Source: Mytilus trossulus
Lineage: Eukaryota
Assembly (NCBI RefSeq): GCF_036588685.1
Contig: NC_086375.1
Coordinates: 89,094,001 to 89,158,000 of the forward strand
Reading direction: 5' to 3'
Length of the DNA: 64,000 bases
The notes below the pieces were generated by a model, which was given only the letters and a program-made list of their open reading frames with translations, had not been told where the DNA came from and did not search any database. The translations under genes and the position numbers were made by a program. Positions 17,571 to 63,821 of this stretch are shown one piece after another; positions within the stretch are counted from its first letter, which is position 1; the number at the start of each line of letters is the position of its first letter.

Positions 17571-17587
17571 CACTTGTCGCCACTATT

Positions 17588-20320: not shown

Positions 20321-21718
20321 TTAAGCGTCGGTACAGTTTATACCAGCAGGACAGGTCGCTAGGTCTGTATCCAAATAGTCCTGGATTGTTTTATCAACAG
20401 TGTCACAATTTCCTACAATCCTGAATCGTGTGCGAGTATGTCTGTCATTTTTAACATCAAAAAGCCATTTTAGTCCGCAATTGCATTCAATTTTATTGTT
20501 TGACAAATCGACAATAATGTATCCAGGTTGATGTCTTCGAATCATAGCCTCTAATGCACATGGTACACGCTTAATCTCGATACCTTTTAGTTCAAGTCGG
20601 CGAAGTTTTGTTTGATTAACGAACGCTTTATCAGAAATGTACAAAATAGGATTATTATTCAGTTTGAGGGTCAGAAGCTCAGCAGACTCCTTTAGGTCAT
20701 TGGTTTCTATTGCGTGTATACTGTTGTTTGACAGATCTAAAATGTTTAAATATGTTATGTCTTGAATTGCTCCCGGAATTCGAGTTATTCCAGAATGTTG
20801 AAGACTAAGGCTGGTAATTTGGGTAACAGATTTAGCCGACTTGTCACTTACGAATTTTAAGTTGTTTTCGTCCATGTTTAGTTGATCAAGTCGATCAAAA
20901 CTTTGCAGAACTTCTGGGAATGTGGTGATATTGTCGTCTTTGAGTGACATTTGATTGAGAAATGGTAGAAAACCTTTTATGAGAGGGATCCGAACTCCAT
21001 AATCTCCTACATTTTGGTTGTGGTCAAAATGTAAATCTTGTAGATATCGGAGTCTTGATATAGCCAATGGTACTGATCGAAGTTTGGTATTTGCTAATGT
21101 CAATCGAAGCAATGTTCCTTCAAATCCATGGAATGAGTTGGTTGGCATGATTGTAATGTCGGCAGCAGTAAGAATAAGCTCTTGTAATTTAACCAGATGT
21201 GTCAACGTTAATGGCCACTGCGAAAGCTCAGTTCCACCGATTTTTGTTCCAAAAGAAAATGATAATAATGAATCTCCTATATCACGTAAAACATCTTCGT
21301 TAAAATTATAGTGATGAATTGGATTTCCAGAAACGTCCAGTGTTTCTATGTTTGTGAATTTTGACAGAAAATTTGGGAGTCTAGTCAATTCATTGTCTTT
21401 TAAACTTAATAACCGCAAACTATTTTCCAAACCATTAAAATCGCCAGAATGAAAGCTGGAATCCGTAAGCTGACAATTTTCAAGAAGTATTTCAGTGAGC
21501 CCCCATCTATCAAATGAAGAAGCGTTAATTGATAAGTTACTGTTCCTTACTTCTAATCTTAGAAAATTACTGCCTCCAGTCTGTGTCGCTATGTAGTCAA
21601 GATCTTCACATTTAACGATATTACCTTGGCATTGGCATTTACCCTGCATTGCACCAGGTAAAGTGCATGTTGCACGGGTAATTGACGATACTAACTGACA
21701 CAGAGAAAGTGAAAGAAC
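20321..21718 (-). CDS. Secreted leucine-rich repeat protein (LRR-1), main coding exon; start exon not confidently located
   Basis: Multiple LxxLxLxxNxL repeats, N-terminal CQC..C cap and C-terminal CNC..C..C cap; no TM. The frame extends upstream of M21649 to an acceptor ctctctttttAG|GTT at 21718, adding hydrophobic VLSLSLCQLVSSITRA (phase 0). AATAAA at 20277-20272. Confidence 0.9.
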   Translation of the reverse strand, partial: VLSLSLCQLVSSITRATCTLPGAMQGKCQCQGNIVKCEDLDYIATQTGGSNFLRLEVRNSNLSINASSFDRWGLTEILLENCQLTDSSFHSGDFNGLENSLRLLSLKDNELTRLPNFLSKFTNIETLDVSGNPIHHYNFNEDVLRDIGDSLLSFSFGTKIGGTELSQWPLTLTHLVKLQELILTAADITIMPTNSFHGFEGTLLRLTLANTKLRSVPLAISRLRYLQDLHFDHNQNVGDYGVRIPLIKGFLPFLNQMSLKDDNITTFPEVLQSFDRLDQLNMDENNLKFVSDKSAKSVTQITSLSLQHSGITRIPGAIQDITYLNILDLSNNSIHAIETNDLKESAELLTLKLNNNPILYISDKAFVNQTKLRRLELKGIEIKRVPCALEAMIRRHQPGYIIVDLSNNKIECNCGLKWLFDVKNDRHTRTRFRIVGNCDTVDKTIQDYLDTDLATCPAGINCTDA

Positions 21719-22944
21719 CTAAAAAGAGAGCATAAATGATTATTAATAATATTAAACTTAAGAATGTTCGCAAATACCTCATGTAAATTACTCAAAATGT
21801 TATATAAAATCCGGATGAACTTTTGATATAAACTCAGATGTCCTCTTTAAACTATCAATTTTCTTCACGATAGCAGCAACATACGAACAGTGTATTTATA
21901 TTTTGTATACTCAAACAATCATGAACCTACTTTTCAGACTTTGTAAAACGTTATCGTTGTCTTATCAACAATAAATGAGCCAGACCAATAAAAGATAAAT
22001 ATTCAGTGTCTTCTTTACAAATAATAGACGGTCTTAAGACATCGATAATAGGTGCTAGCTCCAGACCTCAATTCAACTAATTGAAGATTACGTCTATATC
22101 ATTTGACAATCAAGCACATTTATTCTGGTTGAGGGTTTAGTATCATCCCGTCATAAAATATTTGAGAAGAACATAGTTCGTATGATGCCCATAACTGGTT
22201 TTAGAATAAATGTGCTTGAATGTATAAATGACGCTAAGGTTTCTCCCTGCGTTATTGATTGCTAATGAAACCAGAGGATTTGATTAGCAACATGGATCTT
22301 ATATTTATATTTTGTGTTAGTTGCATTTTACAAAGTATTCATACGAGCACTCATTACATATACATTATTCAGTAATCCTATGTATAATCTATCATAAAAG
22401 AAGAAAAAACGGATTTCTGTCCATCATTTGTTTTGAAATGGAAAAAAACTAGTTTTAAACGGAATGTAGAATTTCTCATACAAGCATTGCTGGCCACATG
22501 GCTCGACACATATTTTCATGAAATGATGAGTAGTTTATTATAGTCATTAAGTCACTTATCAAAAGGTCAAATTTTGGAACATAGAATAATCGAATATTTT
22601 AGATGAAGGAAAGAGCAATTGATTGAATCTTTGTTATTTAAATACTTTAGTTTTATTCAAGGTAGAATTCTCATAAAACAATACATATAATCAAAGTTCT
22701 TATATAATTTTCTTTGAAATTTTCTCAAAAACAGACCATCTGGATGATATAACATTTGTGTTTCAATTTAATTTTTTGGAACCGACAACATATTCACAAA
22801 AATAATTCTGATAAATAAAAACAATTATAACTCACAAAACAAATAGTTATAATTCAATATTTCAATTTTTTTAGACAAAATACATGAATAAAAAAAAAAT
22901 GAATAAAATTATTACTTTTGGAACAAAGATTTTTTACTATTAAT

Positions 22945-23746
22945 TGGTTTTGGCTTTTAACTAGCTGTCAGTAACTGCGAGTACTCTCAAATCGTATTTT
23001 CTTGTTAATTCGTTCTGTTGATACTGTTTATAATGCTTTTTTGTTATTTTTTATTTATATGGATCTTGTCTGTACACCAGCTTTGATTATTTGTAATATC
23101 TTCAATTTTTCACTTATTCTTACAACATTTGTATAAACTTCAAGATTATAAAAAACCGTTTTTTTTCTAAAGTGAACATTGATTGGTTAAATATTTCTCA
23201 GTGATGTCCTGTGTTTGAATTTGTTTGTTAGCTTTTTGGTCATGAATGTTTGTCTCTAATATTTAATTAACTGTGCATTTGTATTCAGATATCGGAGATC
23301 AAATTTATTCGTTCATTGTGTAATCATACGTTTTTTGATTGAGTTAAGTCTGCCAATTGATATTTTATCGTATGTTTTTCTATGTTGTGATGTTCTGCTA
23401 TTGTTTCAGAAAAAGGGAGAAGGTTTGGATCCATTAAAACGTTTAATCCCGCTTCAAATGTTTGCACCTGCCGTAAGTCAGGAATCTGATGTACAGTAGT
23501 TGTCGTTTGTTTATGTAATATATACGTGTTTCTCGTTTCTCGTTTTGTTTATATAGATTAGACCGTTGGTTTTCCCGTTTGAATGGTTTTACACTAGTAA
23601 TTTTGGGGCCCTTTATAGCTTGTTGTTCGGTGTGAGCCAAGGCTCCGTGTTGAAGGCCGCACTTTAACCTATAATGGTTTACTTTTTAAATTGTTATTTG
23701 GATGGAGAGTTGTCTCATTGGCACTCACACCACATCTTCCTATATC
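22945..23746 (-). mobile_element. Long (~800 bp) copy of interspersed repeat family A inserted in a LINE remnant
   Basis: 23493-23746 is nearly the reverse complement of 61518-61771, and the insertion truncates the LINE zinc-finger frame at ...NNPNCVI. Confidence 0.75.
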
Positions 23747-25320: not shown

Positions 25321-25459
25321 TCATGAATGATGTCCTTTTGACATGACTTGGTTGGTATTTATGCATCAAGCTATCAGTTTTTCTGGTGCAGTTGGTTATT
25401 TCTGTGCGATTCGGATACAAAAGTTTTTTTTCCAAATGTTTCATTTTTGTGTGCCCTTG

Positions 25460-27409: not shown

Positions 27410-30382
27410 TATAATGGCACTTTGTATAACTGCGATACATATACTAGTAGGAGGTCTAAGTAGCTGTTAAACAAGGCTGAACCCCAAATTTGCATCGGAT
27501 TCGTTCCGTTGTAGGGTAAAGTCAATCGTTTGATTTTGTCAGTTTTACGGTCTTCATCGTTTTGAATTTACAATAGAATTCCGTGTTTTATACTTTTTAC
27601 ACAAAATAAAACATACACCAACGCTTACCTTACCTGCATTTGACAAATCCTTTATAGAATTTTGTGTCCTCGATGGTTGACAGTTTCATTCTATATATAA
27701 GGTTTTTATCTTGATTTATTCGAACGTCACTAATGAGTCTTTTGCAGACATACGAGTTTATCATACAAAATTAAAATGCTGACATCAAAGACACATATTT
27801 CTCTTTTTTTAAATTAAATGAAACGATCGTACTCACTTTTAATATTATTTATACTCATTGAGTCTATACTTATGTCTCTTTGTTAAGACTATACACTCAT
27901 ATATCTTAGACTTTGCTATATGTCTCTTACCACAATAAAAGTCTTCATTCTGTTTCTGAAAATACATGAACATATACCTTAATGCTTCGTTGTACATATT
28001 CTTTTCAAACAGCAGAGTTGAACTCACGTATATTAAATTTATTGTCGAGATACATAAAGCATCTTTAAAATTTAGTCCTGGTATCTATGATGAGTTAATT
28101 TATAATATTTCCAAAACCTTTTGTAATAAGTCTCTCGATCGAAATTCGTTTTATTCTTTTTTTAGAACTAATGCTATGTCGATAAACCTGACTTTAGTCT
28201 GAATATATAATTTTAACTATTGAAACATAATTTGTCGTTCATTAGAAAAGTATTAGTTCAATAAAAAAAATGAAAAAATAACAAAAATGTGATTGATGAA
28301 TCTAACTGACATTTGTGAGCATGCTTTATTTTCTTTTTTTTTTATTAATTTTTGAAATGCTCGCATGCGTTTTATACTTTTAGCTCAGCGAATTATTTCC
28401 GCAATTTTTTTTTAATTTTTATCGTGGACAATCAAATAGTCCATTTGTGTCTTAACTTCTAAAATTGCTTCCCTACCTTTCACAGATCTGTCCAATTTAC
28501 CAAGTTGGACTTCCTGTAAGATATGCAGGGCCAATACATTTGTGCTGATAAGTATAACATTTGATAGTCTTCCCAGCACGTAGACAGGGAAACTACTTAG
28601 ATAATCCGGTCAATGTAATCTGGTTTGGGCTGCATGTCTAACTTGCACAGCAGGTACAATTCACATCTGACATTTATTGATTTTGTTTTCGTTTTCGTTT
28701 TTAATTTGATATTCATCATTTCTGCTTTCGCCCCTTATAAGTCGATCTACAATGTCAACAGAGATAAGCGCGATATATGGTTCCACCTTCATCTAGAAGC
28801 GTGTTTTATGAAACGTATTCCACAACTTGCATTGTATCTCTAAAGAGTATACTGTTGAACATTTTCTTCCCTGCTGATACATTGTTTAACATTTGAAGGT
28901 TCATATTCGCACGAAGTACAAGATGGAAACTCTTAATAACGAAAAGTAAAAATAACAGGGTTTTTCAAAAATATTTTTGAATTTGATAGAATGTTATAAT
29001 AGATATAGGAAGATGTGGTGTGTGTGTGCCAATGAGACAACTCTCCGTCCAAATATTCAATTCAAAAATGTAAACTATTATAGGTCAATGTACGTCCTTT
29101 GAAAATGATTTTTTTGGTCGTTTTGCGTTTACCGTTCCCGATTTATTTGTACATAATTGACGGTGAAAAATTGATAATATGAAACATTTCAATTGAGAAT
29201 AATATTAAAGAATTATGACAAATACAATCAAAACAACTACAGGCTCCTGACAGGCTTATATAGAATGGGGCGGGGTTGAACTAGTTTGAAGGGAGGTATT
29301 TTTTGATAAAGTTGAAGTTCTATCAACTTGAAACTTAGTACACATGTTTCCGATGATATAATCTTTCTAATTTAATTGCCGAATAAGGGATTACCCCCCA
29401 TTTTCACAGTCCACTGAACATAGAATATGATAGTGTAGACGGGGAATCCGTGTACTGGGGTCACATTCTTGTTATATCATCAGATCAATACACAGAAAAA
29501 AAACATCACACAAAAGTCAGACCGAACATGATATGGTATTTATTCATCAATAAAACAAGAGCGACACAACGTACAGCTCCATCGCTTTTGGTTTATGACC
29601 TGCATTTTGTTTTTTTTCTATCGATTTATGAGTTTTGAACATCGGTATACTACTGTTGCCTTTATTTACAGACCTGAGAGTTATCTGAATGGATTTCACC
29701 TTGAGTGTTTTTAACTGCTAGTGAACAATGTGACACTGTGCAAGGTAAAACATAAGTATCGACAGATTGCAGTACCGTGGCAGTTCATTTGTGTATAAAA
29801 GTAATATTGTGTATGTGTTTATTTTAATTAAATCAATCAGTTGACCAAGTGGTGCTCTTGAGCTGTTTTCTTCGATGTGGTCTGGTTGTTGTCTCATTTT
29901 CAATTTCCATTATCATTTTTTTTTATCAATACTTATACCAAAAGAAACAATATTCAAAGATTTTTTTAAAAGCAATAGTAAATATTTACCAGAACAAAAC
30001 TAAGAAAATACCAACCAAAACATAACATGTTACCGAAACAAATTTAACACGTAATTAATGTTTTAAAAAAACCCACTTAATTGAAATATATCAAAACAAA
30101 ACCAGGTGAGCGTTATCTAAGACAAGCGTAGAAACATTAACAAAATACCTGGTTGACATATATTAAAACAATACTTAAAAAAGATGAACCAAAATACTCT
30201 GAAAGAAAATGGAAATGTTTATAGGTAAAATTGTAAATCTTGGTCATTTCATAAAAGATAAGGTCAAAGATATTTTCAGAATAAGACGACATAAACGCCA
30301 CCTATCTTTAAGATAGCTCAAGATAACATAGTGCAGTCTGACAGACTTCTGTTGGAATTTAAGTGAACAAGAGACAATTCCA

Positions 30383-33095
30383 ATGGTAAGTTTATTAAAA
30401 ACGTTGTGTTAATGTTTATTTCTGTAACTTATTATTCTGGTTAATTATCAAAACTGCTTCTGATACTTGAGCTTAGTCTGTAGTAAATCTTCACAATAGT
30501 GGTCAGTTATATAAATTGTGATATTCAAATTACTTACATCAGTGCTACACATCAACAGAAAATCGGATAAAATCAATTAATTTTAGAAACAAAAAAACAT
30601 TGTTAACACTCAACTTGGTTGTTTGTTGATAACTGTATACCTCTAAAAGATTCATTGTGAAGTATTAATTTGTAAATACAAACCAGTATCCTCGAGGGTG
30701 TTTTCGTTTATTTTCTTATTGAGACGGTCACAAAAAACATGGGATCTAGATTTTTTTATCTTATTAATATAAGAAAAGAGATTGTCAATGAGACTATTCT
30801 CCAAAACAGATCAAATGACACAGAAATTAACTACTGTAGGTCATCGTACGGCCTTTAATAATGAACAAAGCTCATACGTCATAGTCAGCTATAAAATGCC
30901 TCGAAATGATTTGTGATATTTAGGACAAATTAGAAAGAAACATACTTTTTACCTGCCAAATAAGTGTTTTCAATTCATGCACAAGGATATGTTTGACTCT
31001 ATCTATTTTGTTGCATATATAAATAAGATGTGTATATTCTTCACTCATACCATCACAATAAAGTGATTCACTGGTTTATTGACATAATTTAATTATATCA
31101 AACTGAGGTTACTTCTCCTTTATTGAACAGGCTATGAGTTCCGATGCTCAGACATTATTTTAGAGAGTATATTGTTTTGTACCTTTTATCTCGACCACAG
31201 GGTAACAATTTATTTTTTTGGTGGAAGATAGATAGTCCCAGTCCAATGAAACTTTCTATAAGGTCTACACAGTTCACCCAATGAATTTTCATGGTAAAAC
31301 ATATACACTGTTATGAAAAATTCCTATGCACAACATTGCATTATTTTACGCTACTTTTTAGTTGATACAAGATGTGTGTATTGCCCTTCATTTTCTTTGA
31401 GTCTTACAGAGAAACTTCTTTGATCGTTCTCTGAATCATTGATATGTTATCCCTGCATTCGAACTGACATATATATGTATTTTAGTTATTGTATCTTACA
31501 TTTTATGCTGAGGTGATTTTATCCTAGCGTTACAGTACTATTTCACCTAAGTTTTGGTATGGTTTTTATATATATTTCTTTTCTGTATCTAACATAATTT
31601 TTATATCATTTATTACTCGCTTTATATAAAGAATTTTAATAAGATTGCTGGAACGGAATGTGCATTTTACCTCTTTCTTTTACTTTAATTTCAGAGGTAC
31701 CTACCGTTTATTCTAGTGGTGATTTGTAGTTTTGCTACCGTACACACGTGTCCAAGTTTGTGTACATGCATTGCAGATACAATATCATGCAATAACCGAG
31801 GTCTTACCGTTGTTCCCTCTTTCAGTAGTGCCGATATGTCAGGTGTCAAATTATTAGACCTAAGTCACAATAACTTTACTACGTTACCAGTGAATGCTTT
31901 TCCGAATAGTCATTTCGAAACACTCAAGCTAGACTATAATCGACTCCGGACACTACCAAATGGTACCTTTCAAGGTGTTGCTAGTGATATAAAGAACCTT
32001 GACTTAAGCAATAATGAGTTTTTAACCCTTCCAGACGCACTTGCGGCTCTAGATCACTTAATATCATTGAACGTGTCCAATAACTATCAAGGGACAAGTG
32101 ATATTAACTTGCAAAACAATGTAATGAGGGCCTTAGGGGATACATTGGAAGAGTTTACATTCGGTAGTATTAAACAGAAGGATTGGCCAAGAACTCTCAA
32201 CCATTTCCAGAACCTACATCGCTTAGAGATCACATCTCTACATCCGAACTTGATTATACTTCCACCAACAGGTTTCCATGGCTTCGAAACAACTCTTGTT
32301 GAATTGTCTATTCATGATACAAACCTGCTAACTGTTCCAATTGGTATTTCAAAGTTACGCAATTTACTTACGCTGAACTACGACAACAATCGAAATACTG
32401 GTGACAGTGGAATCCTTCTACAATCATTCCCGACAAGCAGTAATTCAAAACTTTCAACATTATCGCTAAAAGGCGACTCACTCACAGTTTTTCCTCTTGT
32501 ATTGAAATATCTTCAGAAATTGACCAAGTTTAGCATTGATAATAATCCTCTTGATTTCTTAAGCGAAACGTCTGTGGAGGGACTACATACTCTCCGTGAA
32601 TTAACAATAAGGAATTGTTCTTTGGAGCGAATACCGGCTGCTTTGGCCACAATCGCAGCATTAGGCTCTATTGACTTCTCATTTAATGCAATAGAGACGG
32701 TAGAGAAACGTGACTTACAAGGCTTCACCAATATACAAAAGCTAACTCTTTCAAATATGCCGCTGAAATATATTTCAAGGGACTCCTTAGCGCCATTGCA
32801 TAATCTACAAGTGCTTGAGCTAAATAATACTGCCCTCACAGAAGTACCACTTGCACTTAATTTCACAGATAGTCTTGCGAACGTTAGCATTGGACATAAC
32901 CGTATTGACTGTATGTGTGAAAACATGGTCTGGCTATTCCACAAGGCAGTCGAGTGTAACCCAACTGGAGTCCATGGGTTTCAGGTCATCGGTACATGTG
33001 ATACAATTCATGCCACTATTGAAGAATATTTGACGAATTTTGTAAAGAGATGCCCGGGCTACAAAGAAATCTGTAATATCATGCCGTATGGCTAA
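30383..33095 (+). CDS. Secreted leucine-rich repeat protein (LRR-2), join(30383..30385,31695..33095), ~467 aa
   Basis: CCA ATG|GTAAGT at 30383-30385 spliced to ttaatttcAG|AGG at 31695 gives MRYLPFILVVICSFATVHT-CPSLCTC (signal peptide plus LRRNT). LRR array, CMC..C..C cap, no TM; AATAAA at 33152. Confidence 0.92.
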
Positions 33096-36494: not shown

Positions 36495-37092
36495 TCATTT
36501 CTTCTTTCCTTTCTTTGGTTTAATTTTTGGTTCTACGTCCTCATATTCTTCGCTTGATGCTATTTTTTCCTCTTCAAGTTTTAGATATAAGTGTGTTCTA
36601 CTTAGATGTTCCACCGGTTCTTCGTAGCCTAGCACTTCCAGTTCTTGGACATTCTGATAAGCGTCCGTATTTTCACTGTTATCCCTGCTGTTTATTACAC
36701 GTTGTTTTTTAATTATATCTTCATATTCCTTTTGTCCTTCATTACTGTATAAACTGCCAGTATGTTTGCCTGTTTGTTCGTCCTCCATAGCCACATATTC
36801 CATTTGAGGTTCCACGTTTTTGTCGTTATTCATATTGCTCTGGCCTTCCATTGGCATGTACTCTGCGTCAAGTGTATTGTCTGATATCACTGTATCCGCC
36901 TCGTTTTGATAAGTTGTACATGTATTTAATGACTTCTCTTCATCTTTATTACAAATGGTTTGCTCAGTGTGCTCATAATGGTTTGGCTTTGATTTCCGTC
37001 CAGTTTTGAAAACATCTTTGTTGGTGCTATTCACTTCTTCACTTTTGAGAGCTTCGTGAGTTGGAACGGGATCGAATCTTCGTCTATGAAAT
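36495..37092 (-). CDS. Receptor A exon 6: cytoplasmic Tyr-motif tail
   Basis: catttcAG acceptor, in frame with ORF 36495-37034; motifs YQNE, YMPM, YVAM, YSNE, YEDI, YQNV, YEEP, YLKL, YEDV. Confidence 0.85.
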
Positions 37093-40000
37093 CTGAAATG
37101 ATTTTGTTAATATGCAGGTTAATAATTTCGCTCCGATATGGTACCCTAAAACTGTTTATTTTCTATTCTGAAAAATAAGACTGTTTTATTGTTATAATAT
37201 CAGTTTGTCTTCTCGGTTGAATGTTTCCCATATTTCGCGTTATCGCGTTATCGATTTTGATCATTATCTTAAGTCAAACAGTGACGTGGAGTGTATGTGT
37301 TGTGAACCAATTGGGGAAAATATGAAGCAACACTCCTTATTCTTATCTAAAAAAAAAATTATTACAACTTGATTTTTTCTGACTAAGTATATTTTATATG
37401 TTTTCATAAATCCAACCAAAACTTTTATCCTATACATATGCATACCTTTTGTAGATGATCATTGTCATGGTAACTATAAAAACCATGAAAACTAAGATAC
37501 TTCCTGCCACTGCAGCTACTAATGTAACTAAAAATGTAATAACATTAAGTTACAATTAACCTTCTAAAATTGGACGAAGTTACAATTAACCTTCTTTTTA
37601 AAAGCGGATGATCTTTCATTGACAAAGAGAAAATCAAAATATCAATCACATATAAATCAAGTTTATGATATTAATGGAAATAATAGAATTAACACATACG
37701 TTTGTACTAACTCTATAGCCGACAATACGTTATTTCTCATTACAGAAGGCCGTACGGTTGCCTAACTTAGATCTACTTCATTTCTACCTTGGTGACAGTT
37801 GTCGCTTTGCCACATCTCCATATTTTGATAGAGTATGAGATACCTGTCATGTATAAATACAATAACGATATTCGTTTTAAGGTTTATGCAATTAACAAAA
37901 GTTATGTGTTCCACGACACCGCGATATTTTTTCGTTGTATGATGTCATCGTTTCATTTTTTGTAAAAAAAATAAAATTGCTGAGTTTGTCAGTCAAAATT
38001 GATTTCGTACGTGTACTATGCAGTACAACTTCTTAACATGTTCATCTGTTTACGTAGAGGACTACATACACTTCTGACACCTGCTCATACGTCAGGCGTA
38101 CTACATCGAAAGCGTAATTTAGCTGATTATTTTGTTTATCCATAACGTTGTACTTACTATTTATTGCGTCTTGATGATTGTTGTCTGTGAAGAATAGTAC
38201 AAATAATAGAATTATATACAACCAAAGATTATTCAGATTTTTTTGTGAAATTGATATTTATTCGAAATCTGATTATTCACAACTTTTAAAGAGCTATATT
38301 GTCCTGACGTATATCGTGGACTATGTGATACCCTTTAGATACAATTAATCCATAATTTATGTATTATTTAGGTCCATCAGCATCTGTTATAAATTAATAA
38401 ATTTACCTTTGGCTTTTGGGATTTTGCCAGTCCATATATTCCTTATCTGGATGACTTTTTATATTTTTTAAAAAGACAATGTGGTTAGGGAACAAGTATA
38501 CAAATTATATGTACCTGTTCCGATCAACATCCTCCTGATCCGTCTGAGATTCTACCTTATAATACTGAATTGACTGCAATCAAACGTTATGAACAGTACT
38601 GTATTTACCGCAGTAGAAAAGTTTGAAAATTGCCTGAAAAGCTGAACAAGAATGCATAATCCATTGTTCAAACTTTTCAGATCATAAACAACTCTAAATG
38701 AACGTTAAAGACTAAAATAATTTATTTGTGTATATGGAAAGTACACATACCGTCTTGAACTACACTGTACATTGACACAAATGTTGTATTTTGACCCCCA
38801 CATGTTTCATTTCCATTTCCTGGGCAAGGTGAATTACAGAATGTTTCGTTGATTTCAGTATGGGCTGGTTCTTTACTGCAGCAACACTTAGCGACATTAT
38901 GTGAGTCCAAAATATCTCCATCCACGTGACCCTTCAAAGAAATATATTGAGTGCTCTCTTTCTTTCTGTCATATTTCTAGTATATAACTTGAATTAATAA
39001 TAAATCAAATAATAGACTGCCTTTAAACTACTTCCTATACATATCATATTTTGTAACTTGGCCCCTGCTATTCTGATTTGATGCATTTCATGTAAAATTA
39101 TCAGAAAGAAACAATTAAATGTACCTTACTCAAATATAGTATCATAATATCCGATTGTAGTTCGTATGGTGACCAATACTTTTTACGTCTATGTCCTTTT
39201 GTTTCGAATGAAAACTTGTCTCTTTGGCAGTAATACCACATCTTCTGATTTCTAAACTAACTATAATTACTGCTTACAATAGATAACTTGGAAATGAAAA
39301 CTTCCAAATTTTGAACTTCTCTTTTCTTTGTAGCAACACTCAAACAGCGCCTGCATGTAAAGTATACATCTCCAAGGAATCGATAACCTTATTTGTATGA
39401 AGTTAAGTCTTTCGGAATTTTAGGTCCTCAAAGCCCTGTGGCCTTTTAATACATTTTATTCGAGCGTTACTGAAAGCTAGTTCAAAGCCTTTAACAACTA
39501 ATATAAAAGCCATACATCTGAATTATATAACATATAGATAGAGAGAAGCGTGAGAGCAAATTAAAATAAAACAACCTACCGAAGTTGCTGCCCAGGTATA
39601 ATGCTGTTCATCACAAAATTTAGAACACATTTCAATCGACATATAGCTACTCATAAAGGAAATGTTAGAATCAAAACCAGTGAAGCATCCATGAAATAGG
39701 GACAGGAAACCTGTAGTACAAAACAAAACAAAAACAGTTTGCAATCATCTTTTAATTGTTTAGTATTTGGAACAGATATATCATTTTTAAAAGGAGGTCG
39801 AGAGTAGCATTTTTTGTTTTGGAATTAGAATGTTGAGATTTTCCAAATGAATTCGTTATATGTACATAATATTGTAAATACAGGCAACAGTAGTATACCG
39901 CTGTTCAAACTCATAAATCCATGGACAAAAAACAAAATCGGTATAACAAACTAAAACCGAGGGAAACGCATTAAATATAAGAGGAGAACAACGACACAAC

Positions 40001-42846
40001 ACTAAAATGTAACACACAAGGAAACGGACCAAACATCCGTTAATCGTGCTATCTATATTATATATAGCTAGATTGGACTCCTTTTTCCGACGTAGTCGGT
40101 ATAGTTTCGGTTTGAGCACTTTGAACTTAAGGACGCTTCACTATGGCAACAGACTTCGCATGCTCGAAAATCTTTTCTGTGATTGGACAAAATGATGGCA
40201 TGGCGGGTGATTTGGTTGTGTTTGAAAAAACGTCTCGAAAATTATATCGTGATGGAAAGCAAGTGAAAAACTATAAATATTTGAACTAGATTTTTCAAAG
40301 ATTTATATTTTTATTAAAATAATTGTTTCTCCAATAGCTCTTTGCATCCATGACAGCTGTTTATTCGGGACAATAATATAATTATATAATTTTTAATTTA
40401 AACTTTGTTGTACGAACGTACATGACTTTTAGAACGCACCTATGCATCTAAGATTTCCGCGGGCTTTTGGTGAATGTAAACAGAAAGATACTACTTATAC
40501 TACCAATAGTTTCTAGCTTTGTTAACCATGAATTAAGTTTAATGTAAACAGTAGTAAATGTATATTTGGTTTTTTTATTTGTACTAGATTTTTTGACAAA
40601 TAAAATATTTAGGTGTCATCACAATATTCTTATATATTATTGCCTAAATATAACCAGACTTAGGGAGCTACCATTTGATTTTTAGGGGGGGTGGGGGGTG
40701 GGGGCTAGGATGACAAATTTTGTCCTGCATTTTTTTTAGCTGTAATCTCTGTCCTGCCTTTTTATCAAGCTTTCACTTTGTTCGGTCCTGCCTTTTTTTT
40801 TTTTTTATCCTGATTTTTTTTTTTTGCAAGTGTCTCATCCTGCCTTTTTTTTTTACTAAAAACTCCTGTCCTTCCTATTTTTATCAAATTTCATCCTAGC
40901 CCCCCCCCCCCCTAAAAATCAAATGGTAGCTCCCTTAGTAAAGAATTTCTTGTAGTTACATTCAGATGGAGATTGTATTAAAGAGGTCCTGCATCATTAA
41001 GTCATTGTGCTTCTGAAGGTTAACGAAATGATAGTTTTAAACATATACTCAAATTTAAATACGTCGGATATCTTTTTTAAAGATAGTTCTTGTTTATCAG
41101 TAGGGCGAGATTGAATGTTTTGTTCCATTGGGTTTGCTCAATTTCCTTTTCTCAGTGGTCGAGTTTGCAAGGTATGCATCAGTGGGATTGAACTTCGTTT
41201 TATGATTCGGTCAGTCTTTATTCATCATGAATTAACTGCTGCTCACGATAGTACCTAGCTTATCAAATTGGCGACTTTGCGTTAAGCGGTATTGCCCTCC
41301 TTTTATCAGTAGCGGAAGTTGGTTAGTAAACGTTTGATAAGTTGCATGCTGGGCGTGGAAATTGTCGAGCAAGTTCATTTTCACTTATATTGCATTGAAT
41401 GTTTTCTCCTTTTAAGAATTATACGCAATAGGGAGGTTTCGCGTAAAACGATATTTACACGCAAGCAAAATAGAGAGTTATACAATGGCGGAAATTGACA
41501 GTGTGACCTTGCAGCAGGCTGCTAAAGGAACACACTTTTGCAGGATGAAAGATATAAGCCAAAAAAACATATATAGGCTAAACGTTAGCCGCGTCGTCAA
41601 TTATTTTCAATTTTTGTTGCGAATTTATTTTTTCCCAAAAAGTGACTGAGGGGCAACTGCATCCCTTGTCCCTATCCATCTAGTTTGAAACAAAAGAGGG
41701 GCAAAAGATATCAGCCAAACTTATAAATAGAAAATAAACTGACATTGCCATGTATAAAAATTAAAAAGACAAACAGACAAAAAATAGTAAAAGAGACACA
41801 ACATAGAAAACTAAATTAAGCAACAAGAACCCCAAAAAAAATTGGGGTGATCTCAAGTGCACCTCAATTTATATCCCTGAAGTTTTTAGATAAAAAAAAA
41901 TTTCTTGATATTTAATATGCTTTACATCAGGAAGTTTGAAGGTTACATATATCCTTTTCCAGATATAACAATCAGTTTGTTAAGCTTTAGTTGAAAGAAA
42001 AATGTCATACAAATCCGTGAAATAGGTCATATATGTAGCATTTATAATAAATAGTCTATATTTTTGGACTGAAAATTTCCATATTATCATGCATAGTCTG
42101 ACATAAAGTCAAACTTTATTTATATACCGTAGTCCGTGTTTTGATAGACTGAAGAAAACAATTCGAAGGGGAATCGTCTTTCTCTTTACTCTATTTTCAA
42201 AGTTTAATAATTCAAACAAATCTAGTAGAAATAGGACTTCTCTTGACATTTCACACCTTATTTGTAAAGAAGGCTGATTGATTGACTTTTGCATTACAGT
42301 GAACAATATTTTAAGAATTTGTAGGACGGAAAAAAATGAAAATTAAAGTTGCTTCAAAGTGAATTGACCAGGATAAAAAGTGGAGATTAGGACTACCACA
42401 GGAAAAATGAAGACATGGACTGGAATTGCTCTTGCAACATGGCACCCATGTAGACCTATCAAAGAGCGGTTGCAACAGTTCCCGAATGTGCAGAGACCGT
42501 GGCATTCACAATACACAAGCCATTGCATTTCATATTCTGACAAGACGTGGCTTCGTATTTATACATCCTGTACAACCAAGACGTCTCTCTTTTGACAGTT
42601 TTATTCCCAGATGAGAGTATCCAGTGAAGACATAATATCTATACCTAACCAAGCCTTTTTTATTTCAAAGGAAAAGTGGCGTCGGCTACAGTAATTAGGA
42701 ACATTACGTAATCTACTTTTTTATTCTTTTTCTTTTAAACTGACAGTGATAACAATAACCCTAAATACAATACTATACTCACATTTAGACTGTCCCGTAT
42801 AAAAAAATAATAATATCAAAGCAACAACATAACCATTCCTTTCCAT
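36495..42846 (-). CDS. WSC-domain type I transmembrane receptor A (~375 aa): complement join(42846-42783, 39710-39580, 38976-38751, 38184-38158, 37527-37446, 37092-36495)
   Basis: All introns GT-AG with phases 1,0,1,1,2; total 1128 nt in frame. SP MERNGYVVALILLFFYTGQSKC; WSC FHGCF..MSIEMCSKFC..YTWAAT..CCCS..CNSPCPGNGNETCGG..SMYSV; TM LVAAVAGSILVFMVFIVTMTMIIY; Tyr-rich acidic tail. Confidence 0.85.
37446..37527 (-). CDS. Receptor A exon 5: transmembrane helix
   Basis: ttttAG|...TLVAAVAGSILVFMVFIVTMTMIIYK AG|GTATG. Confidence 0.85.
38158..38184 (-). CDS. Receptor A exon 4: 27-bp microexon
   Basis: cttcacAG|ACAACAATCATCAAGACGCAATAAATA|GTAAGT, phase 1-1; same size and position as in paralog B. 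Confidence 0.7.
38751..38976 (-). CDS. Receptor A exon 3: WSC C-terminal half
   Basis: CCCS..CNSPCPG..CGG..SMYSV; donor G|GTATGT. The acceptor at 38976 is the nearest in-frame AG (less certain). Confidence 0.8.
39580..39710 (-). CDS. Receptor A exon 2: WSC N-terminal half
   Basis: actacAG|..FHGCFTG..MSIEMCSKFCDEQHYTWAATS|GTAGGT. Confidence 0.85.
40663..40934. mobile_element. PIF/Harbinger-type MITE in intron 1 of receptor A
   Basis: TIR GGGAGCTACCATTTGATTTTTAGGGGGG / CCCCCTAAAAATCAAATGGTAGCTCCC; TTA TSD at 40660-40662 and 40935-40937; internal TCCTGCCTTTTT repeats. Confidence 0.9.
42783..42846 (-). CDS. Receptor A exon 1: signal peptide
   Basis: ATG..MERNGYVVALILLFFYTGQSK T|GTGAGT; phase 1 matches exon 2. 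Confidence 0.75.
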
Positions 42847-46173: not shown

Positions 46174-46765
46174 TTACTGTGACATCATAAATTCATATTC
46201 TTTCTCTGTCTTTTCAAGAACTTGTGTATCACTTTTGATGGCATCTTTCTCAGAGTAAGCATTAAGCTTTGAATAAAGATGTGGTTCGCTTTCTGTTCTC
46301 ATGGGGATTTCATATTCTTGAGAGTTTTGTTCGTCAATGTTGTAATACAGCTCAACATTGTCATTTGACTTCTGATTTAAATTTCTTTCGACTTTATTAG
46401 AGTTTTCAATAATATTTATATATTGCTGGTTAATTTCGTTCCTGTTTGTATTTCTGGCAGGTCTATCCCTTAAGGTTTCCTCCACGGTTTCATATTTGAC
46501 GTCGTCTTCGTCATCAGTTTCAATCTTCATCTCTGATTCATCAGTACATTTGTTGATCGACTGATTAGTTTCACTTTTGTTCTGATATCCAACAGTCTCA
46601 TAAAGTTCCCTTTCGCTTATATTACTATTACTGTGATCAGTATCGACATAATAATTAAGCTTTCCTTTATTATCTGATTTCATGTTACGTGACTTCATTT
46701 CATTGTTTTTGTTTAATATCAAACTCTTACATTTAATGTTAGATGCTGTAGAACATGTTTGATAT
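46174..46765 (-). CDS. Receptor B exon 6: cytoplasmic Tyr-motif tail
   Basis: ctttctttcAG acceptor in frame with ORF 46174-46722; motifs YETV x2, YQNK, YINI, YYNI, YEIP, YSKL, YEFM. Confidence 0.85.
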
Positions 46766-49700
46766 CTGAAAGAAAGTGAGAAAATGAAGAAACAGCAGTG
46801 ACTGAAAATGAATAAGGTACTGAAACAGAACGTTCACCCTTATTCATATATCTTTTTTAGTTTCTTCCTCTATTTCTTTCTAAATTTACATAATCCAGCC
46901 CAGAAATATTGAAATAGAAGATGGTTTACATGTGTTTGATTTTGATTTCATTTTGATTTTATATTATGATATTGTAATGCACTATTATATATTATTATAA
47001 CATTGTCATATAAACAGGAGATTTGACTAGGCGTTAAAAAAAGGTTTAATCCCCTATTTGTTCTAAATGTCCTGTATCCAGTCAAGAATATGACAGTAGT
47101 TATCAAATAGCCCGTTTCTAAGTATGTTAGCATTTTCTTTTGTTGCAGTTTAGTGCTTCTGATATTCAGTTGTAACCCGGTTTTGTTTTCCCTTAAACGA
47201 TTTATACCTTATGAACAGCGGTATACTAGTTTGAAAGTTTTCTAATATTTTGTTGATATTCTTTAAAAATGAGGGGAAATATTGCCGTTTTTGGTTTATA
47301 TATATGTTATATATTATACAATTTTGTAAATTTCCAGTAACAAATAACCCAGGTTTCGTTGACCACCCTGCACTGTGACAGCGACCTAGACAGTGTTCGA
47401 GTGATAAATTATTAATTTCTAACTATTTTCTATCATGTTTCTTACCTTCTGCAAATAATCAAAATAACAACGGCTACCACCATGACACAAATAACTGCAA
47501 AGATTGCTCCTACCACTATACCAATAGTATTGCCTGAAGTAAATACGATTACTTCAAATATTAAGAAACAACATACACGGATTCTTTCGCATCAGTATTT
47601 AGACTTATACCTCGAATTTGACATACACAGTCATCTCAGTACGAGATTCTATGACATACGAGATGATTTTTGTTTTGAAATTATCGACTTCCCCATATTA
47701 GTAGCACTATACTAACTTCACCTACACATGAGATATACATTTCCAAGCTTATTCGGTGTTCAGGTTGCTGCAGATACTTCTCCGACTTTCTTAAACGTCA
47801 TTTTATAAAATTTACTGTTTGCAAAAGTATAAATTATTCTAAATAATAAGAAAACCCTGGCCGTATTGTGCACGACTTTTTTTTAACTTTGGTCCTCGGT
47901 GCTGTTCAACTTTGTACTTGTTTTGGCTTTCAAACTTTTTTATTTGGGCGTCTCTTATATTTGACTGTGAATTCACATTACTATAAGACGTGCCACGTTA
48001 CTTTTCTATCCCAAGTTCATGTATTTAGTTTTGATGTTATATTTTTTTTTCACATCGGATTTTGTCTAATGCCTATTTCGTTTCTGTGTATGTGACATTT
48101 TAAAGTTGTGTCGTTGTTCTCCTCTTATATTCAATGCGTTTCCCTGAGTTTTAGTTTTTACCCGGATTTGTTGGGGGTCTTTTTTTTTATCGATTTATGG
48201 GTTTCGAACAGCGATGTACTACTGTAGCCTTTATTTGTACAATTGACCAAAAATATGCCATTTCTATTTAAAACAAAGCGTAGATGGAAATCCGAAAAAC
48301 AAGATTCGGTAAATGCCTGTTGTTTCCTTGGTTGATAAATTTCATAAAAAGTTTTATTTTATCAGTTTTTATGAACTTTACCCTGTTTAAATGTACCTTG
48401 GAATTCGATATTTTGAAAAATTGTTTTTTCTACAATATGTATTATGACATCGTTCAAAGTGCTATGACTTATAACTTTATTTTATTGTTTTCCGTGCATA
48501 CTTATAAACAGGATATTATCATTAAAAATCACTTACGATTATTATGTCCTGTGTTCTTGTAACCTATAAAACATAATTATTAGAATGGTTATTTTTCCCT
48601 ATAAACTCTTATATTCTTCTCTTCACACTACACAAAAGAGAAATTTTCTACAATAATCTTTGATATGAAAACCAAATCAGCTCCCAACAAAACATAAGTT
48701 GCTATAAAGCAAATGATGTCACTAATATGTATACTTTAATGCTTGAAAATTTCGTAAAAAGGGAAATAAATAAGACAATAAATAAAAAGATGACATCTTT
48801 ATGCTATCAACGACAGAGCTTCACTTCTACTAATTACTCTCAACCAAAAGTTGAACTGTTTGGGTATATGCTTTTGATTTGTGTCAAATAATGCAGTTTC
48901 CCTGTGGTGTGTTGTTTACAAGATAGACAGAAAAAAGGTTTATCTATATATTCAAAGAGTAGTTTGAAAATACTCAAAAATGATTATCAACCGGCGTCGT
49001 ATCCGCTGATCCCTTTACACACGAATAAACTGTAAAACACGTAGTCAGCTGCTTCCAACGTCATTTGACACTATTTATGACAATAAATATTAATGTACAT
49101 ACCACCCATAGCTATACCATAAACAGAGAAAATTGTTTGGTTGTAGCCACCGCATATTTCATCCGGACTTTTTGGACATGGAAAACTGCATAAACTTTCG
49201 TTCACTTTATTCATAAGAGTTTCATTACTACAACTACAAATGATATATGCCTCATAAGCATTTGTCAGAAAAAGTGCGCCAGTTATCTTGATCTAAAATT
49301 AAGAAAAAACAGATTACTAATATTTATGAAGTTATATGAATGTTTCTGTTAAAAGTTCCAACCTAGATTTTTATGAGAACAAAACATAAATTAAAATATT
49401 GAAGACGTTTGATTATACCAGCACTGCAAATGATCATACTGAAGTTATGTATGAATTTATACAATTAAAAAAGAAAAAATCATATCACAGATTATCATAC
49501 AATTACATGGCACAGACCATATTTATCTTTCAACAAATCATGAATATTTTATAAACTGATGCAGTGTTTATATCATTTTATTGACAATTTAATGACTATC
49601 CAGTCTTAAACTGTTTCAAAAGTGTCATCAATCAACTTATTGGTAAATGGTTACTTACAGATAACGCAGCCAGGCTATAGTGACCTATTTTACAATATTC

Positions 49701-50901
49701 TATACATATGGAACTGGACATAAATGTTTTATTTACATACGAGATATTTTCTTTAACACTCATGTAACATCCATAGTACTCAAAACTTGATCCTGTTCAA
49801 AAGAAATATAAAAAATCATAAATGAATATTGTTCCATTTAAAGTATTTTTTACTACACTTTCTTTTTCTCTGTTCCCGATAAAATAGTGAACAGCAAAGT
49901 AATATTTTTTAATGCGTTAAATCTTTTCGTTTTGTTGTCTCGGTTTAAGTACCGATTCCTGTTTGTACAGTTTGCAATGAGTCACATGTTTTATAATTTT
50001 GTTCCTTTCCCACTAATTTAACGATTGGCATTATTTAGTGCTGCAGTCCGACTACACCAACACTCAATTCAAATTTGATTTGCGAAAATATAGGACAGTT
50101 GGCATCGTTATTTGTTTTTCATACTTTCTTTGTGTATGCATGATGACAGTTGATATCCATTCGTTAGACGTGTTTGGGCTGTTGATTTTTTCCTTTGATT
50201 AGGGACTCTACATTTTGAATTTTTCCTCTGAGTTCAGTTTTTTTATGATTTTATTTTTTCGATACAGATAGCCGTTTTATTTGTATTTATTTTTCTCCTA
50301 ATATTTTGTCCTTTCCGGTATTTTTGGCGGCGTTGGCAGATTTCTAGTGGTTCTTATACAATTTATTTTCAAAGTGTCTGGACTCGTACTGCATGTTGTA
50401 AGCAATACAGAAAGCGTGTGCAGCAGGTTTTGGCATGTTTTATCGTCTTTAACGTTAGTTGTTCTACCACGGAAAGATGAGTGCTACTGGTTGACCGACA
50501 CATGGCCATCATAAACAAGGTGTATGCATATGACTACATTACATATAATTTATAAGATATCCTAAGAATAAAAGAATAGCACGCAAATGTTTAAATTATT
50601 TTTTGTCTAATACGTTGAACCGGATACGAAATAAATAAAATAAGATAAGATAAAAAATTGAAAAGGCGACACCAAGTCGTGAATTTCATGGGATCAACGA
50701 GAAAGTAGCAAAGACCTAAATATTTAGACTGGAGGAAGAGTTTATGTATTTCTATGATCCATCAATGATAAGCCTATTCTTTTGAATTCAACTATAATCT
50801 GAGACGTACATTTATAAAGTAGTGTAAATTTATCCAATCTTACCTTGTACGAAAATTACACAACATAAGTAGAACGTACACAACTTGAAGATGAAAGTCA
50901 T
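46174..50901 (-). CDS. WSC-domain type I transmembrane receptor B (~362 aa): complement join(50901-50844, 49792-49659, 49292-49103, 48563-48537, 47533-47446, 46765-46174)
   Basis: All introns GT-AG with phases 1,0,1,1,2, identical to A; 1089 nt in frame. SP MTFIFKLCTFYLCCVIFVQG; WSC YYGCY..MSSSICIEYC..YSLAAL..CSCS..CSFPCPKSPDEICGG..FSVY; TM IGIVVGAIFAVICVMVVAVVILIIC-RR; Tyr-rich tail. Confidence 0.87.
47446..47533 (-). CDS. Receptor B exon 5: transmembrane helix
   Basis: tacttcAG|..NTIGIVVGAIFAVICVMVVAVVILIICR AG|GTAAGA. Confidence 0.88.
47575..47800 (+). mobile_element. Penelope-like RT fragment (intronic)
   Basis: YLDLYLEFDIHSHLSTRFYDIRDDFCFEIIDFP followed by frameshifted ..TSP...IYISKLIR; RT C-terminal signature. 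A smaller piece lies at ~39310-39385. Confidence 0.7.
48537..48563 (-). CDS. Receptor B exon 4: 27-bp microexon
   Basis: ttttatAG|GTTACAAGAACACAGGACATAATAATC|GTAAGT, phase 1-1. Confidence 0.7.
49103..49292 (-). CDS. Receptor B exon 3: WSC C-terminal half
   Basis: taattttAG|IKITG..CSCSNE..CSFPCPKSPDEICGGYNQTIFSVY..G|GTATGT. Confidence 0.85.
49659..49792 (-). CDS. Receptor B exon 2: WSC N-terminal half
   Basis: gaacAG|..FEYYGCYM..MSSSICIEYCKIGHYSLAALS|GTAAGT. Confidence 0.85.
50844..50901 (-). CDS. Receptor B exon 1: signal peptide
   Basis: CAA ATG..MTFIFKLCTFYLCCVIFVQ G|GTAAGA. Confidence 0.8.
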
Positions 50902-60198: not shown

Positions 60199-60420
60199 TA
60201 AACAGAATGCACACGAGAATAAATGTATTGCCAGAATGCCTGTGTGAACTAAAAGGTATAGGCAGAAAGACTTTGAATACCAAATGATATCGGAAGAAAG
60301 GCTTTGGTTTCTAAAAAGTATAGACAGAAAGGCTTTAAATTATATATTGTATAAACAATATGCCCTAGAGTACTTCATATTATAAGCAGAAAGGCATAGC
60401 GTACTAAATATTATACACAG
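60198..60420. repeat. 31-bp satellite, degenerate right arm
   Basis: TATARRCAGAAWG.C..GAGTACT-like units continue at about 31-bp period. Confidence 0.7.
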
Positions 60421-62158: not shown

Positions 62159-62447
62159 TTGTAATAATCTGATAATATACGGGGTCAGTATTATCGCTCG
62201 AGCCTCATATGGAATTTACCGACCACATATAAGGTTATTAGCACATCGTGTAACTAATAATATAACCGTCTATCAAATAATATAAACCGATAATGAAGTT
62301 CCTACCAATTCACCCTGAACAAACCAAACAATCGTGAATAGCGAAGTATGCAACAGTAGGTATCTGATTTCGTGACGTGACAATTTCACGGGATGATACT
62401 ATGTCATCCAAATATAAATAAACAAACTAAATATTCAAATATATTTA

Positions 62448-63821
62448 TTAACGCCTTTTAGGACAGGTTGGAACGCGTGACTGTATATAAGTTTCAACAG
62501 GTTGTTCAATAGTTTCACAAGTCCCAAGAAATGTTTTTGCGGGGAGACGGGAATTTAATATCCACGTCAAATCACAGGTGCATTCGATAAGACAATGAGA
62601 CAAGTCTAAAGTCGTAAGCGCGGGGGTATTTAAGATTGCTCTCGGAATCTGAGTCATGGCTGTGGATGAGAAATCAATTACTCCTAATTTCGGCAATGAC
62701 TGGAATGCTTCCGTAGAAATGTATGCCAGAGGGTTGTGAGAGACGTTCAAGTGAGTAATAGTTGTCTGGTTACTCATATCATACCGCTCAATACTTTGTA
62801 TATTATTGTTCGATACATCAAGCTCTGCCATGCTGGGTAGTTTAAGTAAAGCTTGTGGTATTCTGTCAAGATGGCATCCACTTAACCCCATTTTTGTAAT
62901 AGAAGCATTAATCAGAAGTGATAGCGCATCATCGGCGACGTACCATAAGCTGTTCCTACCCATATTTAAGTCTTTAAGATTAACAAGATTTCTCAAAACT
63001 GCAGGAAATCGCGATAATCCGTCATTTTGAAGACTTAACACGCGAAGTGGACTAGTTGTATGAGTTAATGTGGCAAAAGCTTGCGCAAAAATTCCACTGT
63101 CATGTACAAAAACATTATCATCAAAATATAGTTCTTGAAGCTGCGTTAGTTGTGATATTGCCAGTGGTATTTGTCTAAGCTGTGTGTGTGATATGTGCAA
63201 CTTTTCTAATGTGTGTTCAAACCCATGAAATCCATCATAGGGTATATTGGCTAGATATCCTCCTTCATAGTTCAAGGTATTTAATTTCGGGAAATGGGTT
63301 AAGGCAACTCTCGGCCAAGTGGCAATGTTTTTTCCTCCAAAGTGAAATTCTGTTATAGAGTCCCCGATTAGACGGAAAACATTATCAGTAGGACCTCTAT
63401 CCAACGTTGTTCCATCTGGAAAATCGTTCTCCTTCAGGTCTAAATACGACAGCTTATTCAATTTACCAATATCCTGGGCATGTGACAAATCCGTCAAATT
63501 ATTATTTCTAAGTGTGAGTTTTGTAAGGGTATCGTAAACAGCATCAAATGCGCCATCCTGAATGGATGTTATCCGATTCTGATCTAAATTTATTTCTAAA
63601 TCTTTGTGTGTTAATCCATTAAATGCATGCGCTGAAATGTTTCTTAAGATATTGTTATTAAGGTTTACAGTTGTTATTGAACCAGGACTTGGGATAGATG
63701 TAAAATCTGGTAGTGAAGTAAGTCCTGAGTTTGAGCAATCGTACACACTTCCAATCGTTTTACATGCTCCTTCCACTCTCACAGTGTTACTCAACAACAC
63801 TAATACCAATAACAGCAACAT
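62448..63821 (-). CDS. Secreted leucine-rich repeat protein (LRR-3), ~457 aa from the ATG at 63821
   Basis: Acceptor ttttgtttcAG lies immediately before ATG 63821; SP MLLLLVLVLLSNTVRVEG. LRR array; CTC..C..C cap ending CPKRR; no TM. The ORF-track TTG start at 63830 is probably intronic. Confidence 0.92.
   Translation of the reverse strand: MLLLLVLVLLSNTVRVEGACKTIGSVYDCSNSGLTSLPDFTSIPSPGSITTVNLNNNILRNISAHAFNGLTHKDLEINLDQNRITSIQDGAFDAVYDTLTKLTLRNNNLTDLSHAQDIGKLNKLSYLDLKENDFPDGTTLDRGPTDNVFRLIGDSITEFHFGGKNIATWPRVALTHFPKLNTLNYEGGYLANIPYDGFHGFEHTLEKLHISHTQLRQIPLAISQLTQLQELYFDDNVFVHDSGIFAQAFATLTHTTSPLRVLSLQNDGLSRFPAVLRNLVNLKDLNMGRNSLWYVADDALSLLINASITKMGLSGCHLDRIPQALLKLPSMAELDVSNNNIQSIERYDMSNQTTITHLNVSHNPLAYISTEAFQSLPKLGVIDFSSTAMTQIPRAILNTPALTTLDLSHCLIECTCDLTWILNSRLPAKTFLGTCETIEQPVETYIQSRVPTCPKRR

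Follow-up and report, generated by a model that had tools for sequence, protein, structure and literature searches.

Genes and gene models at the locus

The DNA considered here is a window of 64,000 nucleotides from contig NC_086375.1 of Mytilus trossulus (32% GC; positions are counted from its first letter), which carries five genes of two small families. Three of them encode leucine-rich repeat (LRR) proteins and two encode transmembrane (TM) proteins with a WSC-like domain, in the order LRR-1(-), LRR-2(+), WSC-A(-), WSC-B(-), LRR-3(-). A first-pass annotation of the window had listed the same genes in this order and on these strands, and open reading frames (ORFs), Pfam matches and exon models confirm that all five are real. 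Secreted LRR-only immune proteins are already known from bivalves; what the locus adds is a conserved pair of such genes whose products are predicted to dimerise without a coiled coil.

The LRR genes were correctly recognised in the first-pass annotation, but the short 5′ coding exons of LRR-1 and LRR-2 were not given. Coding exon 1 of LRR-1 (27931..27948, minus strand) is 18 bp long, contains the ATG and five codons of the predicted signal peptide, ends in a GT donor in phase 0 and has a start that matches M. trossulus record P0306; exon 2 (20321..21718, minus strand) is a long LRR-only ORF that completes a likely secreted protein of 471 aa. In LRR-2, coding exon 1 consists of the ATG only (30383..30385, plus strand; P0121), with a loose end of RNA from run X2 matching the bases upstream, and exon 2 (31695..33095, plus strand) encodes the remainder of a likely secreted LRRNT-LRR-LRRCT protein of 467 aa, with an X2 RNA contig spanning 31694-33123. 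The positions of the two first exons mean that LRR-1 and LRR-2 lie head-to-head, and the interval of ~2.4 kb between their start codons (27949..30382), in which no notable repeats were seen, is a candidate shared promoter. LRR-3 (62448..63821, minus strand) is a long ORF for a likely secreted LRR-only protein of 457 aa, and the splice acceptor directly before its ATG suggests an upstream exon.

The three LRR proteins are 32-33% identical to one another and have Pfam matches to LRR families only (LRR_8 E 2e-19 to 7e-36). Their N-termini are hydrophobic, no later hydrophobic 19-mer scores above 1.5, and the chains of LRR-1, LRR-2 and LRR-3 stop 3, 6 and 4 residues past the last Cys, such that secretion is likely from hydropathy. 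The proteins thus consist of LRR motifs and caps with no other domain, as LRR-only proteins (LRRops) are defined, and the earlier description of them as lacking a membrane anchor or signalling domain stands. The structure model of LRR-2 is a confident capped solenoid (pLDDT 90.7), for which Foldseek returned generic fold matches (those listed are 15-22% identical), with no close solved homologue among the matches listed. Atlas and fold matches are to generic extracellular LRR proteins, including Tsukushi, LINGO-1 and LGR4.

WSC-A (360 aa; 36495..42846, minus strand) has exons at 42846-42783, 39710-39580, 38931-38751, 38184-38158, 37527-37446 (TM helix) and 37092-36495 (Tyr-rich tail), and WSC-B (362 aa; 46174..50901, minus strand) has exons at 50901-50844, 49792-49659, 49292-49103, 48563-48537, 47533-47446 (TM helix) and 46765-46174 (Tyr-rich tail). 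The two genes each comprise six exons with identical intron phases (1,0,1,1,2), and their proteins are 30% identical. Each protein has a hydrophobic N-terminus, a WSC-like domain with eight Cys, a short stalk, a TM helix and a 200-aa tail, in agreement with the small ectodomain and large tail initially ascribed to them. For all five WSC-B introns, runs X1 and X2 yielded RNA contigs that contain the splice joint, and the WSC-A model matches 360-aa records of M. edulis and M. galloprovincialis; RNA contig pieces for WSC-A end at the 37092 acceptor, with no intron joints among the rows listed. The RNA-contig comparison took in 20 kb with WSC-A, WSC-B and LRR-2, LRR-1 and LRR-3 lying outside it. 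Run X1 covers WSC-A and WSC-B and not LRR-2, and each of the three genes is partly covered by X2, X4 and X11, in a pattern of holes and depths that cannot rank the genes and is not used as evidence of co-expression.

Matches of the WSC proteins to the Pfam WSC profile (PF01822) cover profile positions 1-82 with E values of 1e-4 to 1e-5; they lie below the curated cut-off of 27.8 bits, WSC-B scoring 23.0 and the WSC-A orthologue of M. edulis 25.8. Both proteins have the eight Cys that passages of PMC9024836 describe as the hallmark of the domain. The structure model of WSC-B is unusable (pLDDT 32), a search of PDB sequences with a WSC profile gave weak matches at the level of the TM segment only, and a search of the Atlas with WSC-B gave one mollusc cluster at 0.80, which is a lead only. 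Three features of the ectodomains were also observed. The exon 3 starts (38931 and 49292) encode 12-13 residues with no match in the PF01822 profile, an insertion common to both proteins where exons 2 and 3 meet; WSC-A has a ninth ectodomain Cys at 38886-38878 (-), reading CCC here and CSC in M. edulis, M. galloprovincialis and M. coruscus; and M. trossulus WSC-A record P0183 has 172 aa, with read-through of exon 4 (38184-38050 (-)), and is without the TM helix, being either a soluble isoform or a mis-model. The sole DNA similarity between WSC-A and WSC-B is one of 166 intronic nt at 80%, which are most likely a dispersed repeat and do not point to a recent duplication.

The LRR family in bivalves

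LRR proteins of this family are found in oysters, Pinctada, scallops and Potamilus as well as in Mytilus. In a careful tree of 29 selected rows, with which a quick tree of 58 rows agrees, mussel, scallop, oyster and Pinctada rows form an LRR-1 clade (100/100), and mussel, oyster and Pinctada rows form an LRR-2 clade (100/99); the sole sister of LRR-3 is one long-branch sequence. Five named scallops gave LRR-1 types. The 'leucine-rich repeat protein 4' of Azumapecten farreri (AIL02132.1) scores 335 bits with LRR-1, 206 with LRR-2 and 196 with LRR-3, is 41% identical to LRR-1 across 97% of LRR-1 and falls in the same 100/100 clade, and by these measures LRR-1 is its orthologue; LRR-2 and LRR-3 are clades apart from it.

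This orthology connects the locus to the scallop (Chlamys/Azumapecten farreri) proteins CfLRRop-4, -5 and -6, which are alike in their LRR-only architecture and, for LRR-1, in the hydrophobic N-terminus. CfLRRop-4 is microbe-responsive, induces immune effectors and binds lipopolysaccharide (LPS), peptidoglycan (PGN), glucan and poly I:C, according to passages of a review (PMC5877582) that report no genomic cluster, partner or dimer for the CfLRRops. AIL02132.1 is probably CfLRRop-4, as judged from the name alone, and the immune role first proposed for the LRR genes thereby gains support. By orthology, the mussel LRR proteins are likely to bind LPS, peptidoglycan or glucan, and for microbial patterns at large we consider binding somewhat more probable than its absence. 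No paper on the locus itself was found in the literature searched (mostly without subscription journals or supplements), and the passages of PMC4581086, bioRxiv 2023.01.19.524809 and PMC12551460 concern none of these genes.

Synteny was read from accession order and contigs rather than whole genomes, and accession order is approximate, the order of M. galloprovincialis LOC numbers differing from that in the window. Within Mytilus, both M. edulis (CAG2222960-63) and M. coruscus (CAC5411961-58) retain the order LRR-1, LRR-2, WSC-A, WSC-B, and judged by accessions the block is also present in M. edulis CAG2257019/18/17/15 and M. galloprovincialis LOC143066926-30. The block thus appears intact within the genus, as expected among congeners. 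LRR-1 and LRR-2 types occur on consecutive accessions in M. gigas (XP_011448487/488/489, all three LRRs) and on adjacent accessions in C. virginica (XP_022293977-79/980); they share a 204,687-bp contig in S. cucullata (XP_062601055/061), and one further contig, of 155,912 bp, carries both types. In C. angulata, O. edulis, S. echinata and Pinctada the two types share only a chromosome-sized contig. From adjacent accessions and shared contigs, LRR-1 and LRR-2 are likely to be neighbours in oysters. The better-supported unit is accordingly LRR-1 with LRR-2 rather than LRR with WSC; among the 44 profile hits described below, no full-length relative of WSC-A or WSC-B was recognised from outside Mytilus.

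Orthology in the LRR family is mostly single-copy, with local duplications of LRR-1 in M. gigas and in one of the M. galloprovincialis assemblies. A 231,674-bp M. galloprovincialis contig (VDI66924-31) contains at least four LRR-1 copies (VDI66924, 66925, 66928 and P0250) and has no WSC-A model between LRR-2 (VDI66929) and a split WSC-B (VDI66930/31), possibly reflecting copy-number and presence/absence variation, or annotation gaps. Several database models are of unusual form: P0276 (M. gigas XP_065927529) is an 833-aa model with two tandem LRR-1-type units; P0313 of O. edulis is an LRR-1 orthologue that carries the label 'toll-like receptor 7', although its 475 aa leave no room for a complete Toll-like receptor (TLR); and P0172 (VDI01819.1, M. 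galloprovincialis) is a 1068-aa model in which an LRR-3 copy is fused with cadherin repeats plus a TM helix, and which adjoins a plain LRR-3, VDI01818. The last is possibly a real LRR-cadherin receptor, but it was treated as a probable merged model, with no cadherin counterpart in the window. A metagenome scan reduced 131 pattern matches to six loci, all short or distant (25-29%) and without genomic context; two short contigs among these (L001:173-1474 and L002:43-1149) carry distant (29%) LRR-only relatives on a long tree branch.

A predicted contact between LRR-1 and LRR-2

A complex model of LRR-2 (residues 19-467) with LRR-1 (residues 22-471) reached an interface score (ipSAE) of 0.65 in three of three runs, compared with 0.33 for the best of three controls, with contacts agreeing in at least 96% between runs and partner pLDDT of at least 86. 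The pass mark had been calibrated on microbial proteins, for which 51 of 78 solved pairs and 2 of 108 mismatched pairs reach it, and on eukaryotic proteins (39/65 solved pairs versus 2/126 unrelated pairs), and the scoring did not use the alignments of this analysis. In both chains the predicted interface lies after the strands of repeats 10-13, and it is pseudo-symmetric, 19 of 22 LRR-2 positions mapping to interface positions of LRR-1. Arg313 in the interface is invariant in 35/35 family rows, and Asp341 and Tyr360 in the 34/34 rows that cover them. The combined interface motif is present in 26 of 32 family proteins and in none of 103 other, unrelated LRR matches; its residues also occur in LRR-3 and Potamilus rows. 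The model supports a predicted dimer surface of the family, neither showing binding nor fixing the partners. That the family dimerises through the flank of repeats 10-13 is reasonably likely on this modelling; that LRR-1 pairs with LRR-2 specifically is a tentative and rather doubtful proposal.

This arrangement differs from that of the mosquito proteins LRIM1 and APL1C, to which the window LRRs had been likened. The likeness is one of functional analogy, with secreted LRR paralogues paired in invertebrate immunity, and does not extend to membership. Hydrophobic N-termini compatible with a signal peptide are present by hydropathy only; no CC pair, and hence no C-CC double-cysteine motif, occurs in any of the three LRRs, and the 3, 6 and 4 residues after the last Cys provide no C-terminal coiled coil of the kind found in Long and Short LRIMs (judged by tail length, a crude coiled-coil score being uninformative). 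Whereas LRIM1/APL1C is disulphide-bridged and has coiled coils, according to passages of PMC3020904, the predicted LRR-1:LRR-2 contact is made by the LRR flank.

The LRRNT-LRR-LRRCT solenoid is shared with TLR ectodomains and with shrimp LvCD14L, and a side-by-side dimer recalls the dimers of TLR ectodomains. The window LRRs have no TM helix, TIR domain or hydrophobic tail of the glycosylphosphatidylinositol (GPI) type, and the LRR model is 15-21% identical to TLR chains in Foldseek.

WSC proteins and the relation between the two families

The WSC-A and WSC-B tails retain 22 of 23 Tyr in comparison with M. coruscus. Retention among the other residues is 262 of 372 (p=0.007), and among hydrophobic, aromatic, Pro, Cys or His residues it is 72 of 97 (p=0.025); as read from these alignments, the tails are under selection for tyrosine. 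Each tail has three YxN motifs, and there are two YxxM motifs in WSC-A and one in WSC-B, both being motifs expected to dock SH2 proteins. The tails contain neither an immunoreceptor tyrosine-based activation motif (ITAM) nor an immunoreceptor tyrosine-based switch motif (ITSM), and one site resembling an immunoreceptor tyrosine-based inhibitory motif (ITIM) is present in WSC-B. A type I TM topology, conserved Tyr motifs and the lack of an enzyme domain are features of the receptor class of non-catalytic tyrosine-phosphorylated receptors, and the tyrosine-signalling role suggested earlier for the tails is strengthened by the conservation. Together WSC-A and WSC-B make up a previously undescribed family of putative WSC receptors or adaptors in Mytilus, with tyrosine motifs under selection.

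A search with a WSC profile of 1.84 billion representatives gave 44 hits. Four have E values of 1e-30 or below, all being WSC-A or WSC-B types from Mytilus, and the others comprise several short fragments of similar appearance as well as WSC or TM proteins of a generic kind, so that no full-length relative from outside Mytilus was recognised among the 44 hits, with source look-ups covering four of the 41 new ones. Little weight can be placed on this absence, given the much faster evolution of the WSC genes than of the LRR genes, WSC-A and WSC-B being 74-76% identical to their M. coruscus counterparts and LRR-1 and LRR-2 89-90%. A 361-aa WSC-TM-tail protein (P0242) that is 25% identical could be a distant relative, and P0209 and P0221 are tails of a third WSC-family type in which the aligned tyrosines are kept.

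Yeast Wsc1, vertebrate Kremen and the insect Wsck-type kinase also combine an eight-Cys WSC-like domain with a single TM helix and a cytoplasmic tail, and the first-pass annotation had compared the WSC proteins to the first two. The comparison does not amount to membership. The stalks of WSC-A and WSC-B, at 24-27 aa and 15-25% Ser+Thr, are unlike the Ser/Thr-rich glycosylated stalk of Wsc1; kringle and CUB domains flank the WSC domain in Kremen, whereas Pfam finds no kringle, CUB, FN3 or kinase domain in WSC-A or WSC-B; and their tail is a 200-aa acidic multi-Tyr array unlike those of Wsc1, Kremen and Wsck. The WSC profile matched no Kremen among PDB sequences at E<=10. Passages of PMC9024836 state that high-affinity glycan binding may be beyond a WSC domain on its own and that the domain of Kremen works in a protein complex; a carbohydrate sensor is therefore not the default reading of WSC-A and WSC-B.

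Taken as a whole, the locus is best explained by dimerising LRR pattern binders that lie beside independent WSC phosphotyrosine proteins, a combined reading that we hold to be evenly balanced between right and wrong; its component that the LRR and WSC families are functionally independent is probable. The LRR proteins would belong to an old bivalve family of secreted LRR-only proteins, with LRR-1 and LRR-2 being likely co-regulated, soluble binders of microbial patterns. Two solenoids would meet side by side through the same flank (repeats 10-13, with the invariant Arg, Asp and Tyr) and without a coiled coil, a contact that would free the concave faces for ligand, and homo- and heterodimers may both form. 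WSC-A and WSC-B would, from their motifs, be non-catalytic receptors or adaptors whose tails are phosphorylated by a cytoplasmic tyrosine kinase, allowing SH2 proteins to dock at YxN and YxxM, and their ligand would most likely not be one of these LRRs but another protein or a glycan. Pattern binding is reported for LRR-only proteins of bivalves, and the locus provides a testable model of how such proteins act, one that names a partner, proposes an interface down to single residues, includes a conserved pair of genes and is relevant to farmed mussels and oysters.

A number of observations weigh against parts of this explanation. Close cousins pass the complex test, as do 7 of 44 blind neighbour pairs, and since LRR-1 and LRR-2 are paralogues (32% identical) the pass says nothing on which member binds. 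Conservation of the interface, when tested repeat by repeat, did not reach significance (permutation p 0.06, 0.14, 0.14), and a structural role inside a single chain could explain the invariant residues. Of 246 N-glycosylation sequons, eleven lie in columns of the interface, position 346 of three scallop proteins among them; at these offsets sequons are nonetheless rarer in the interface repeats (3 sequons over 32 columns, compared with 40 over 88, from related rows that are not independent). No LRR-2 type from scallops appeared among 7,999 scored candidates, which argues against an obligate heterodimer. The oyster linkage is one of accession order and contig sharing, not DNA, and does not cover orientation. 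The LRRs are conserved (~90% to M. coruscus), unlike rapidly diversifying immune families; CfLRRops are described with 1-4 'LRR domains' in passages of PMC5877582; and the accession AIL02132.1 was not found in the papers searched, leaving its identity with CfLRRop-4 one of name. With regard to the independence of the two families, any WSC orthologues outside mussels, those of oysters included, may have diverged beyond detection.

The rival explanations share much of this evidence. Each LRR might homodimerise only, or not at all, with the LRR-1:LRR-2 pass being a paralogue echo of a family surface; this overlaps the best reading and is a possibility that we rate below its opposite. The pseudo-symmetry of the interface (19/22 positions), the motif residues common to LRR-3 and Potamilus rows and the lack of an LRR-2 type seen in scallops, because of which the interface may be a homodimer surface, all favour it, but the head-to-head layout here and the linkage in oysters suggest that LRR-1 and LRR-2 are co-expressed. 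Alternatively, the LRRs may be secreted non-immune proteins of gut, mucus or matrix, or growth-factor modulators like Tsukushi and the small leucine-rich proteoglycans, linked as the residue of an old tandem duplication. High conservation, mostly single-copy orthology, the generic extracellular matches (Tsukushi, LINGO-1, LGR4) and the tendency of tandem paralogues to remain adjacent by inertia are consistent with this explanation, which is unlikely in view of the probable scallop orthologue reported in passages of PMC5877582 to bind pathogen-associated molecular patterns and respond to microbes, the local duplications of LRR-1 noted above for M. galloprovincialis and M. gigas, and a complex model that passes its controls.

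The first-pass annotation had gone further and proposed a system of soluble sensors and WSC transducers, in which secreted LRRs would capture a microbial ligand and hand it to WSC-A and WSC-B for transduction through the tyrosine tails. Such a relay would account for the gene order kept in M. edulis and M. coruscus (and in LOC143066926-30 of M. galloprovincialis), for the complementary architectures and for the conserved tail Tyr, and it has a precedent in kind in shrimp LvCD14L, a secreted LRR-only protein described in passages of PMC10178686 as acting through membrane Tolls. However, any neighbouring genes would be expected to stay linked among congeners; oysters and Pinctada keep the LRR pair, yet no WSC-A/B orthologue was recognised there among the 44 profile hits; in M. 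gigas each of the three consecutive accessions is an LRR; and the WSC genes diverge faster than the LRRs. The relay is therefore improbable, having no support beyond linkage in one genus, and is unsupported rather than refuted. An extended form, in which the LRR trio makes combinatorial homo- and heterodimers through one flank as a soluble TLR-like sensor linked since the mussel/oyster split, with the WSC proteins as its kinase-less phosphotyrosine transducers, is very improbable, although its dimer-pair half alone remains a tentative prospect. If true, the link between LRR and WSC proteins would be a TIR-independent innate pathway at one locus and a new signalling route, for which the evidence is thin.

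Among the other ORFs of at least 58 aa in the window, 0 of 121 reach a Pfam curated cut-off, five weak matches all falling below it. A broken remnant resembling a non-LTR (long terminal repeat) retrotransposon lies inside the LRR-1 intron (25331-27086 (+); RVT_1 E 6.5e-5, below cut-off), and fragmented ORFs at 57600-60100 (+), without a Pfam match, resemble a decayed DNA transposon. Tandem arrays of a 31-bp unit occur at 55917-56770 and 60248-60340, with a 157-bp doublet at 57019-57340 between them, and elsewhere in the window there are arrays of 38 bp x 46.8 copies (489-2262) and of 62 bp x 6.2 copies with 99% match (17581-17962).

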